A DNA stretch of 41,218 nucleotides from a virus (taxonomy: Duplodnaviria > Caudoviricetes), in the IMG/VR virus record IMGVR_UViG_3300036802_000048, positions 1 through 41,218 of that record; one strand, given 5' to 3'. The notes below the pieces were generated by a model. It searched no databases and was not told where the DNA came from. It saw only the letters and a program-made list of their open reading frames with translations. How positions within the stretch are numbered: position 1 is the stretch's first letter; each line of letters starts with the position of its first letter. Positions 134-41,117 of this stretch are shown here, piece by piece. A program made the translations under genes and the position numbers.

Positions 134-209
134 TGGTGGAGCCAAGGGGGATCGAACCCCTGACCTCATCGCTGCCAGCGATGCGCTCTCCCAGCTGAGC
201 TATGGCCCC
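134..209 (-). tRNA. tRNA-Ala(GGC), integration target, reconstituted copy
   Basis: Reverse complement GGGGCCATAGCTCAGCTGGGAGAGCGCATCGCTGGCAGCGATGAGGTCAGGGGTTCGATCCCCCTTGGCTCCACCA; 76 nt, G3-U70 pair, encoded CCA. Confidence 0.97.
172..209. repeat. att core, left copy (38 bp)
   Basis: CTGCCAGCGATGCGCTCTCCCAGCTGAGCTATGGCCCC, identical to 41080-41117. Confidence 0.97.
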
Positions 210-28075: not shown

Positions 28076-28945
28076 TTAATATGCAATAGTAGGAACAATT
28101 TCGGCCGCTTTCCTCCGTATTTTCAAAAAACATTTTCGTAGATTATCCTCCTCAACGCCGAGTCTCCCCGCCATATACCGCATCTTAATCCGGTACTCTC
28201 CGCCCTCCGACACTTTATATTCGCTTAGTTGTCCGGACTCTATATCCGCAGCGACAACTTCATGCGCTTTCTGCACGTAATTGCGCTGTTTGGCGGTCAG
28301 TCTACGGATAATTAGCGCCGATTCTTCCGGAGTAACGGCTTTTTCGAAGAGGATGCGCCACGGCTCCGGTTTGTTTGGTACAACGTACACGTTGAGATAC
28401 TGCCCGTCTGCATCACGCCGCCCCAATCGTACTGTACCGTTCTGCGCGATTAGTAACCGGATGTATTCCGTTTGAAATGCGCGGTTTATATAGCGCACAG
28501 CCTCGCGTTCACTCCGATCATCTAGCTCTACGCGTGTAAATGCGTGTTCTAATGCGGGAACAATCGTTGTTCGTTCAAAATTGCGGTAATTCATCCAACA
28601 GGAGAGCGCGTACAGAAGTGCTTCGTAGTCATCCGCGCCTAAAAAGCGTCTTATTGCCGCGGCATTTACTCGGAAGTCCTCAAAATCCGTACCGCCGAAG
28701 ATGTCGACGCCGAGTGCTCGATAGACAGCTACGCGATAATCCGGAAGTGCCGCCGGATCGTATTTCAGCGCCAAGCGTTCCGCATATGTAATAGTAAGCG
28801 CGCGGATAGCTATGTAGACGGCCGCATCATCTTCCGGAAGCACAGCGCGGGATTCCGCCCGGTCGTGCATATAATCGAGCACTTGGTCAATCGCTGCCCG
28901 ATTGCCGTTGTATTTATACCTAGTCACTGCGTTCAGAAACGGCAT
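28076..28945 (-). CDS. Sigma-70-like transcription factor (putative)
   Basis: C-terminal LT.KQ...MA.RLGV.E...RK...IR.K region-4-like HTH; central region-2-like helix. Confidence 0.5.
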   Translation of the reverse strand: MPFLNAVTRYKYNGNRAAIDQVLDYMHDRAESRAVLPEDDAAVYIAIRALTITYAERLALKYDPAALPDYRVAVYRALGVDIFGGTDFEDFRVNAAAIRRFLGADDYEALLYALSCWMNYRNFERTTIVPALEHAFTRVELDDRSEREAVRYINRAFQTEYIRLLIAQNGTVRLGRRDADGQYLNVYVVPNKPEPWRILFEKAVTPEESALIIRRLTAKQRNYVQKAHEVVAADIESGQLSEYKVSEGGEYRIKMRYMAGRLGVEEDNLRKCFLKIRRKAAEIVPTIAY

Positions 28946-30256: not shown

Positions 30257-30623
30257 CGCCTATACTCTATTATTCGTAGTCAACCAGCGCTCCCGCACCG
30301 TAAGAGCGATATTTATTTTCGCTCCTACTTATATAGACACCGCTCGACGTCTCGCCGCACACTATCAGGGAAAATAATCTTCGCCTACTTAGATAGACGC
30401 AGTGAACGTAGCCTCCCGCACCATTTACGGTATTACACTTTCGATTGATATAACGTTGTCCGATTGCGGACTGTACAGCGCCCTCATAAATAAAGCCGAC
30501 ATACTCAAGCGATCCGCACCATCTGCGGAAAAACACGCCTATACTAGAGGTAGGGACGTTAATTCTACAAACTGAGACATGCGTTATGTAAAATTATTGG
30601 TAGTCAACGCAGACTCCCGCACC
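30257..30623 (-). repeat. Five tandem GTGCGG-anchored motifs
   Basis: CCGCAC at 30293, 30355, 30416, 30514 and 30617, with shared flanks. Confidence 0.65.
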
Positions 30624-30634
30624 TTTAGCACATA

Positions 30635-30666
30635 AAAAAGACGCTCCCTTCTTCCGATAGCGCCTA
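30635..30666 (-). terminator. Intrinsic terminator
   Basis: Minus strand AGGCGCT...AGCGTCT followed by a T-run. Confidence 0.6.
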
Positions 30667-30768
30667 TATATACTATATATAGTTTCTTTAGATAAAAATA
30701 ACCCGATATATAGTGTTTGTAAACAGTTTTATAAACAGGAACTATTATTTATAAATATTCGGAACTTA

Positions 30769-30797
30769 TTGAACATATGTTCGTATTAGTGTATCAT
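30769..30797 (+). promoter_or_regulatory. sigmaA promoter overlapped by a LexA box
   Basis: TTGAAC-N17-TATCAT; perfect palindrome GAACATATGTTC at 30771-30782. Confidence 0.8.
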
Positions 30798-30799
30798 AA

Positions 30800-31285
30800 A
30801 GGACAAGCAACCCCGGATGCCCCCGAAGCTGCCCGTAATAAAAGGCGGTTGCCATCCGCTATATGTTAACGTAGCTTTGGACGGCCAAGTCCGGACTACA
30901 GTGATTGGCGAAGTAAAATCCGGTCACATATTGGACATTGGCGTGTCCTTTGGTGAGTGACCGGAAGATTCGCAAGCATTTGGCGCTACCTGCGTTGTTA
31001 CCAGAAGTATTAGCGTACTTAGTAAATCGACCCGCATGGCGATCCGTGTTCAAGCACGGTACGGGGTTAGGTTCACGTTGAACCTGAGTTATCCGAGTGG
31101 CGGTTCCGGCGACTGTAACCGCAGGACACGGACGTTGGCTTAGCGGCTGACCGGCGCGATCAATACTTTCCGCGTGAGATACCTTCCGACTACAATCGGT
31201 AGGCGCGGAATTTACGTGGTACATAACCCTAGATTGAAACTAGACTTCTCCGGCGTTCGAGCGCCATCATCGAAGGTAATGTAAT
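30800..31285 (+). ncRNA. Candidate large structured non-coding RNA, family unknown
   Basis: About ten hairpins, long-range helix 30862-30874/31212-31225, G-U pairs favour the plus strand, dedicated promoter; ends approximate. Confidence 0.6.
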
Positions 31286-31291
31286 AGAGTG

Positions 31292-31405
31292 TTAACCCAG
31301 GCGTACACCTACGGGATTAATCTTAATTACGGCCCATGTATTATTAACCTCGCGGATGTACAGTCTGCGGCGGTCTTTACGGGCAAGTCTACGGTCCCAT
31401 TTCAT
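31292..31405 (-). CDS. 37-aa basic protein
   Basis: AAGGAGGTGA RBS before MKWDRRLARKDRRRL... Confidence 0.6.
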   Translation of the reverse strand: MKWDRRLARKDRRRLYIREVNNTWAVIKINPVGVRLG

Positions 31406-32553: not shown

Positions 32554-32677
32554 TTTATAATAGTGAAACCATATGTTATAATCTGCGTATATTTATTAAC
32601 TAGGCATCATGTAAACTAGATTACTTCTTAACTAGTACTCATCTTAACCTCCTTATGTAATGATGTCAACTAGTTAA
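32554..32677. promoter_or_regulatory. Immunity switch: face-to-face promoters with AACTAG repeats
   Basis: Plus strand TTTATA-N17-TATAAT with TG (32554-32582); minus strand TTGACA-N17-TAAGAT (32669-32641); AACTAG at 32598, 32614, 32630 and 32668. Confidence 0.65.
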
Positions 32678-32701: not shown

Positions 32702-33058
32702 GTGATTAGATTCTCTTTGAATAGAATAATGGAAGAACGGGGATTAGATCAGAAGACCATCGTAGATATTTCCGGAATAAATCGTAATACAATTAAGGCG
32801 CTCGCTAATAACGCGAACAACCGAATTGACTTCCCAACGCTAGACAAGCTGTGCCGCTCGCTAAACGTTGTTCCCGGCGATTTAATCGAATACATTGACG
32901 AGGGCGATGAAGGTCTCAAGGATAGTGAAGGCACTTTGTCTTCAATAAGAGAGTCTAAAATGGATGCGGAGGGTTTTATAGTAGTTGGGCCCACTGGTGC
33001 TGGCAAAAGAGAAATTATTCAAGCCCTTTTAAAGGGTGGAGTACGATTAGAAGAATAA
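32702..33058 (+). CDS. Cro/C1-type HTH repressor
   Basis: L..IM.ERG......SGI.RNTI..L......RID..TL.KLC..L...PGDL.EY pattern. Confidence 0.88.
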   Translation: MIRFSLNRIMEERGLDQKTIVDISGINRNTIKALANNANNRIDFPTLDKLCRSLNVVPGDLIEYIDEGDEGLKDSEGTLSSIRESKMDAEGFIVVGPTGAGKREIIQALLKGGVRLEE

Positions 33059-41079: not shown

Positions 41080-41117
41080 CTGCCAGCGATGCGCTCTCCC
41101 AGCTGAGCTATGGCCCC
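41080..41117. repeat. att core, right copy (orphaned 5' half of tRNA-Ala)
   Basis: Identical to 172-209. Confidence 0.97.

Follow-up and report, generated by a model that had tools for sequence, protein, structure and literature searches.

How does a prophage respond to DNA damage when its repressor cannot cleave itself? Many Bacillota prophages carry short repressors without self-cleavage, and the route by which they sense damage is often unknown. The question is raised by a 41 218-nt stretch of viral DNA (IMGVR_UViG_3300036802_000048, analysed in full and here called the window), a 41-kb record with SPP1-type portal, terminase, tail, lysis and integrase genes (54 ORFs scanned against Pfam). 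Left of its repressor-like gene, among genes that nearly all point leftward, lies a non-coding region rich in inverted repeats. An earlier note on this DNA proposed a large structured RNA, transcribed rightward from an SOS-controlled promoter, and remarked that the repressor has no self-cleaving peptidase domain. The remark about the repressor holds: it matches HTH_26 only and has no S24 domain, and an ImmA-type protease was absent from the 54 ORFs scanned in a search that covered the window only. The repressors of the family are short and HTH-only; of the 17 other loci that carry the element, 10 have a first RBS-led plus-strand ORF of 69–77 aa. The window repressor has 118 aa, versus ∼ 70–77 in most relatives, and a P-loop-like stretch in its extra tail. 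Since the repressors are of this kind and a BRO/KilAC gene lies near the element in only 8/18 loci, the LexA-boxed promoter described below is the one SOS input that we see in common across the family.

As the earlier note had suggested, homologues were collected from related prophages, giving 19 distinct elements, all in a Paenibacillus-type prophage context (the window, L063, L064, L066–L072, L076, L082, L101, L129, L131, L146, L147, L149 and L177). They came from a BLAST search of 116 genomes from the genus, protein-led loci, sequence patterns, two models and a promoter-only pattern. Duplicates were dropped (L062 = L082, L065 = L063, L102 = L072, L136 nearly L129), and a match in G127 (L148) and a weak opposite-strand match in G020 (L142, no promoter motif) were not counted. 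Joint analysis used 18 loci; L177 entered last and was checked alone. The elements measure 215–520 nt, with ends that were partly set by hand. The loci are related (pairwise identity median 0.55, maximum 0.82), so counts over loci are not independent events. One genome (G051) holds L129 and L136 as near-identical prophage-region copies 1.9 Mb apart, and another (G173) holds two different family members, L147 and L149.

A class-wide search with a model of module D (Table 1) returned the seed genome alone (1 of 151 genomes); the array was thus not found outside Paenibacillaceae among the genomes searched. Rfam gave no match over the element in the window or in 10 homologous loci, in agreement with the earlier note, which had not recognized the RNA. 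Left of the element in L147 (550–626, minus strand) is an int-alpA match just below the gathering score (35.3 versus 35.8). BLAST against phage and plasmid records yielded no real match, a sequencing-run search listed no RNA run holding the element, and the open-access literature (main texts) contained no description of such a locus that we could find. The best-matching DNA sequencing run may be the one from which the window derives, and short related pieces are present in a second. Protein-led viral scans returned nothing or one locus already known, and two further pattern scans had zero matches. Of other pattern scans, one gave 61 matches, none of which extended beyond 29 nt; one gave a single match inside a coding region, which was rejected; and one gave 14, of which five were already known and six others, on inspection, were chance matches in coding DNA.

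The earlier note read the promoter as a sigmaA promoter, TTGAAC-17-TATCAT. These hexamers are in place and agree with the consensus at 9 of 12 positions; the conserved part, however, is an ECF-type motif, G[A/G]AAC-N16/17-CGTA, present in 18/18 loci (spacer 16 in 15 loci, 17 in three). The −35 and −10 elements of sigmaW promoters are spaced by 16–17 bp. In the first 13 loci the motif lies 15–22 nt before the first stem, with ∼ 0.003 occurrences expected per stretch. For sigmaW, a passage in PMC5758882 gives the elements TGAAAC and CGTA and notes basal activity. The LexA box GAACATATGTTC is where the earlier note placed it and is conserved over the ECF promoter with at most one mismatch in 17/18 loci (perfect in five, offsets 1–18); L076 has no box (three mismatches). 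In five loci the left half-site simply coincides with the −35 AAAC. The box is always within or touching the promoter core, as expected for repression, and we predict that LexA represses the ECF-type promoter motif. L131, L146, L147 and L149, which were found by promoter-blind models, have both promoter motif and LexA box, and L177, the one locus among 16 matches to the promoter-only pattern that carried an array, has six loop hairpins. The window contains two perfect LexA boxes, the second inside an ORF. The second LexA-like box, at 484–501 (17/18 nt identical to 30771–30788 reversed), stands at the start of plus-strand cargo ORFs 473–880 and 945–1874.

What might read the ECF-type motif? A 289-aa phage protein has its best Foldseek matches among sigma factors (E 0.036 or worse, none significant); it belongs to no Pfam or PHROG family, and a protein search gave 11 relatives, the named ones from Paenibacillus. 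Because such a weakly sigma-like gene is near the element in only 6/18 loci (two of the 18 with short flanks), a host ECF sigma factor is the likelier reader. All five hosts tested had sigW above the cut-off. The same motif recurs before the repressor gene, which is the first plus-strand gene past the array, 1.1–3.1 kb away; there it is found in 14/18 loci by the strict pattern and in 15 with one mismatch, mostly without a LexA box.

The selected fold lies on the minus strand. The earlier note had seen wobbles that read as G-U only on the plus strand and took the folded RNA to be the LexA-driven plus-strand transcript; across homologues both statements are reversed. In aligned stems, A.C on the plus strand (G.U on the minus strand) outnumbers G.T by 14:1 for module D and by 18:1 for module B; the ratio is 10:2 if each distinct column type is counted once (p = 0.039). 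The bias weakens to 27:13 when all TTGGCG loops are taken with uncorrected register, and to 36:24 when every variant is included (p = 0.16). Module D pairs to 96.7% on the minus strand, with four pairs changed on both sides, versus ≤ 45.5% in all slid controls; its shuffle test is inflated by the relatedness of the loci. The folding z is lower on the minus strand in 17/18 loci (means −2.32 versus −0.88 on the plus strand), compared with 5/18 for the flank control, and L177 gives −4.86 (minus) versus −2.58 (plus). With DNA energies the bias falls to 10/18 loci, so the signal leans to RNA. Taken alone, the window (30800–31290) folds modestly better than shuffles and alike on both strands (z −2.33 plus, −2.26 minus). 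G-U pairs in single-sequence folds are equal between strands (235 versus 238); such folds therefore cannot settle the strand.

The large multibranch domain of the earlier note gave way to local hairpins in series, modules that some loci have gained and others lost. Its long-range closing helix (30862–74/31212–25) has a pairing probability of 0.0 on both strands, and the 3′ arm is present in one of the four homologues having the 5′ arm. The short stems that we checked (30814–19/30853–58, 30919–27/30957–65 and 31069–85) are present as described, and the view of a conserved, structured, non-coding locus stands: none of the plus-strand ORFs is conserved in the element across 18 loci, and seven loci lack any plus-strand ORF of 25 aa within the initial 150 nt.

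Both ends of the element bear on what the folded RNA is. On the right, a minus-strand ORF stops within ∼ 40 nt in 17/18 loci. On the left, a hairpin with a U-rich tail (P1) occupies the matching place in 17/18 loci; the terminator scan was loose, and it is the shared position that counts as evidence (the window tail is weak, three U's). Given an ORF stop at one end and a terminator-like hairpin at the other, the folded RNA is most simply, we infer, the 3′ part of a leftward early transcript, with P1 as its predicted 3′ end. In most single-sequence folds P1 is already present with no antisense partner, and an antiterminator was not seen. Between these ends the array is modular; stems vary and the loop is kept as CGCCAA, UUGGCG on the other strand. 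In L066 module F (1169–1203) is separated from the array by the 37-aa ORF, on whose far side it lies. The 37-aa protein of the window matched neither Pfam nor PHROG; basic peptides of this family (37–41 aa) adjoin the array in 9/18 loci and are absent in the other half.

Table 1. Features of the array locus and its surroundings in the window. Promoter, terminator and repressor assignments are predictions.
Feature	Position	Strand	Remarks
ECF/sigmaW-type promoter motif, GGAAC-N16-CGTA	30761–30785	+	Predicted antisense promoter; inferred start ∼ 30791–30793
LexA box, GAACATATGTTC	30771–30782	.	Overlaps promoter core
Terminator-like hairpin P1 and U-rich tail	30793–30836	-	Hairpin 30836–30803, UUCG loop, many G-U pairs
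Optional module A/A2	30844–30965	-	5/18 loci; loops CGUUAA (30866), CGCCAA (30905, 30938)
Core module B/B2	30968–31030	-	CGCCAA hairpin (30980–85, G.A-closed), CGCUAA hairpin (31010–15)
Module C, stem with AUCGCCAU bulge	31031–31065	-	5/13 loci examined
Core module D	31090–31134	-	Stem, 7-nt CGCCA-containing bulge, stem, GUURC loop
Hairpin with CGCUAA loop (31140–45)	31134–31151	-	Six closing pairs
Module F, 5′ end of structured region	31245–31280	-	
37-aa basic ORF, last gene before structured RNA	31292–31405	-	Family ends beside element in 9/18 loci
Second ECF-type promoter motif, upstream of repressor gene	32565–32589	+	No LexA box
SigmaA-like leftward early promoter, TTGACA-17-TAAGAT	32641–32669	-	Consensus match only; ACTAG repeats overlap
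HTH repressor-like gene, no S24 peptidase domain	32702–33058	+	Pfam HTH_26
289-aa protein, weak sigma-factor likeness	28076–28945	-	AlphaFold model pLDDT 87.8

The loop motif TTGGCG occurs 51 times in 6091 nt of elements versus 11 times in 36 018 nt of flanks, and CGCCAA does not occur on the plus strand inside elements. Pairs flanking TTGGCG in the elements are Watson–Crick in 64% of cases (173/270), compared with 23% (56/246) elsewhere in the window, and fully paired closing dinucleotides are of at least six different kinds. An unbiased hexaloop scan put TTGGCG at the top (19 of 65 hairpins; the next had four). Each element has 1–6 UUGGCG loops plus variants and bulges, and the variants TTAGCG, TTGACG and TTAACG all keep Y-U-N-R on the plus strand. 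TTRRCG hexamers are over-represented throughout the window on both strands (237 sites, ∼ 3 times the uniform expectation); three plus-strand sites have five closing pairs, all within the element. Within 1 kb of the element there is no conserved same-strand target (CGCCAA occurs on the plus strand four times in 36 kb of flanking DNA, never at a position common to the loci), and the only partner seen is thus the opposite transcript. Fold predictions leave the loops accessible on the minus strand; on the plus strand they are often paired, so kissing would be slowed.

This hexaloop is familiar from enterobacterial plasmids. The ColIb-P9 replication-control hairpin, used as control sequence, has UUGGCG on top and an A-run before the hairpin, as P1 has here, and the title of a 1998 paper by Asano et al. 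reportedly names the 5′-rUUGGCG-3′ loop motif. UUGGCG/CGCCAA on a variable stem is common to ColIb-P9 Inc RNA/repZ SLI, R1 CopA/CopT, IncB/IncK RNAI and the array, as is a terminator hairpin with an A-run on the opposite strand; the opposing promoter motifs predict that the convergent overlapping transcripts of the plasmids would have a counterpart here. The plasmid systems have one loop, whereas the elements here have one to six. They belong to enterobacterial plasmids and are constitutive, whereas the array sits in Bacillota prophages and, by its motifs, would be gated by LexA and an ECF sigma factor. They control rep translation, whereas no overlapped RBS was seen here; a rep-gene leader with leader peptide and pseudoknot was not found as target, the first plus-strand gene being the repressor. 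The polarity is the opposite of the one that we assign: ColIb-P9 and R1 carry the UUGGCG/YUNR loop on the target and its complement on the regulator. Passages in PMC10798244 and PMC4485353 describe the YUNR U-turn loop on CopT and its general role in the speed of RNA–RNA pairing, and one in PMC10724649 places specificity in the loop and upper stem.

Phage and attenuator systems supply the other ingredients. Lambda OOP is a prophage early-region antisense RNA with a LexA box in its promoter that favours lysis, the wiring that we propose here; part of PMC5869508 describes it as SOS-linked and acting on cII mRNA. OOP is short and targets the coding end of cII, whereas here the target would be a 215–520-nt non-coding array with terminator, and the promoter is of ECF type. 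In P4 (CI RNA) and Gifsy-1 (IsrK), replication or antirepressor genes are held off by premature termination under the control of RNA pairing, as proposed here; for P4, lysogeny held by RNA-controlled termination is described in part of PMC4825925. The P4 CI RNA, however, is cut from the same strand and causes termination at seqA/seqC, whereas here the partner would be an opposite-strand, SOS-gated RNA; neither same-transcript target sites nor an Rfam model match to the P4 CI or P1 c4 immunity RNAs was found for the array. In pT181/pIP501 attenuators and STARs, loop–loop pairing with a nascent transcript decides a terminator, as we propose, and here too an intrinsic terminator is predicted downstream of the pairing loops (17/18 loci). 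The pT181 type switches genes off, whereas STARs switch them on but are synthetic, the RNA blocking termination (activation, in a passage of PMC9980294); the sign of control here is a prediction. GOLLD and ROOL, which the earlier note had mentioned, are also long structured non-coding regions in Bacillota prophages. A kinship was not borne out: the array matches no Rfam covariance model in the window or in 10 homologous loci, its local modules are freely gained and lost, and no long-range helix is supported.

We propose, with a probability that we put at roughly 40%, that the locus is a DNA-damage-gated antisense switch, in which a damage-induced RNA would stop the early transcript from terminating. 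The leftward early transcript would normally end at P1, and the replication, antirepressor and late-regulator genes beyond it would stay silent. SOS would remove LexA, and sigmaW holoenzyme would then make a fully complementary plus RNA, starting in the U-run and spanning P1 and every loop; the LexA-controlled ECF promoter would thus make the antisense partner. The UUGGCG U-turn loops of this RNA would make kissing contacts with CGCCAA loops on the nascent transcript, and several loops ahead of the terminator would give several chances to pair in time. The duplex would zip into P1, whose plus copy is weakened by A.C mismatches, and the polymerase would read through. Antisense RNA would in this way replace repressor self-cleavage as the SOS input. 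Among the roles that the earlier note listed for the plus RNA, ‘antisense regulator’ survives as a plausible SOS input, although not with that RNA as the folded product. A fuller statement of the idea would make RNA the SOS trigger, in place of repressor cleavage or an antirepressor protein: a LexA- and sigmaW-gated antisense transcript would override a terminator by means of a kissing-loop array. Such a transcript would be a naturally occurring RNA activator of transcription that responds to DNA damage and to envelope stress; in this complete form we hold the idea tentatively and with considerable doubt.

Some features would complicate such a switch. In lysogens the leftward promoter may be inactive, and a repressor that shut it fully would leave no nascent target there. 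A separate leftward promoter motif past P1 (5/18 loci) could bypass P1, and the ECF motif shared with the repressor gene (14/18 loci) hints at a pro-lysogenic output. The reversed polarity relative to the plasmids, the often paired plus-strand loops and the weak U-tail of the window also count against it.

Other readings have to be weighed against the antisense switch. The minus-strand RNA could be a protein-binding array or a trans-acting RNA (a sponge, a nut-like antitermination site or an immunity RNA), which SOS antisense would remove by duplex formation and RNase III in the manner of lambda OOP and cII. We consider this unlikely, though deserving of weight: selection acts on the minus-strand fold, in which the loops are accessible; many identical short loops on interchangeable stems are the layout of a protein sponge, as in CsrB; the loop motif is also present in bulges; a basic 37–41-aa peptide gene adjoins the array in half of the loci; and OOP provides a precedent with a LexA box. 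No binding protein was identified, however, the peptide family is missing from the other half, the hexamer is identical to the known kissing motif, and all variants seen here keep YUNR on the other strand. Control might also have the opposite sign, with antisense making the early transcript more prone to terminate or decay (pT181/pIP501-type or lambda paQ-like) and thereby damping or delaying lytic growth. Natural antisense attenuators do switch genes off, and the ECF motif before the repressor gene would fit. We regard it as decidedly unlikely, as LexA control would switch an anti-lytic RNA on during SOS, P1 needs no antisense to form in most single-sequence folds, with no antiterminator in sight, and the antisense covers P1 itself.

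Closest to the earlier note is a reading in which the SOS-induced plus RNA is the effector (a repressor decoy, a scaffold or a long establishment-type transcript that extends into the repressor gene) and the minus RNA a CopA-like antidote. The polarity of ColIb-P9, with the UUGGCG hairpin after an A-run on the target strand and the terminator on the regulator strand, speaks for it, as does the lack of a position-conserved plus-strand terminator before the repressor gene. It is nonetheless improbable given the weak plus-strand fold (mean z −0.88 versus −2.32) with its A.C mismatches, the lack of a conserved plus-strand ORF and loops that are unlike the ACTAG repeats. Very improbable, in our estimate, is a replication element (single-strand origin, primosome site or RNA II-like primer region by the putative origin). 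Several loci have CGCAC repeats and an AT-rich tract immediately to the left, no helicase or primase was found among the 54 window ORFs scanned, and a 10-mer is common to pTA1060 ssoT and L066/L072. Against this, the repeats are absent in several loci, there is no plasmid match, and the strand bias of 17/18 with RNA energies shrinks to 10/18 with DNA energies. Moreover, ssoT and the pAMbeta1 ssiA region (controls drawn from parts of PMC4595007 and PMC5703833) have no such loop-hairpin arrays; the array shows neither their sequence nor their hairpin layout, and the 10-mer is in a stem in ssoT. Finally, the 47-codon ORF (30817–30960) that the earlier note offered as an alternative product is an open frame downstream of the promoter, but it is complete in 1/18 loci, absent from the nearest relative (L066) and without a Pfam match; this non-conservation effectively refutes it. 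Three other ideas were dropped: a T-box or tRNA-end decoy (UGG is not kept in the variants of the loop), an anticodon mimic (the loop has 6 nt) and LexA as a roadblock (the box varies in position yet stays in the promoter core).

Each ingredient of the proposed antisense switch is known; the combination of arrayed loops, a Gram-positive prophage setting and a LexA-plus-ECF gate appears to be new. The family offers a testable, RNA-based answer to how damage could be sensed with non-cleavable repressors. The UUGGCG kissing loop, a textbook feature of enterobacterial plasmids, here occurs in Gram-positive phages and in arrays, and prophage control is linked with an ECF-type promoter motif under a LexA box. 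If our reading is correct, such a natural antisense activator, with stems that can be exchanged, would supply parts for Gram-positive RNA circuits.

Several further features of the window deserve mention. At 32565–32675 the repressor promoter and the leftward promoter face each other, and ACTAG repeats with a 16-bp period extend over both; these are candidate operators. To the left of the array (30270–30760), five CGCAC-core repeats (30294–30618) are followed by an AT-rich tract, a candidate replication origin; about half of the loci have similar repeats. A leftward promoter motif in 30667–30733 (TTTACA-17-TATTTT, 30723–30695) closely matches a host chromosomal promoter upstream of nrdD and recurs downstream of P1 in 5/18 loci. 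It is accompanied by two boxes ∼ 31 bp apart, which we take to be NrdR-like, and the arrangement suggests dNTP-sensing control of the phage replication-side genes. At the two ends of the window, positions 41080–41117 (minus strand) copy the first 38 nt of a tRNA-Ala(GGC) gene (137–209, minus strand), and this repeat is likely the attachment site.
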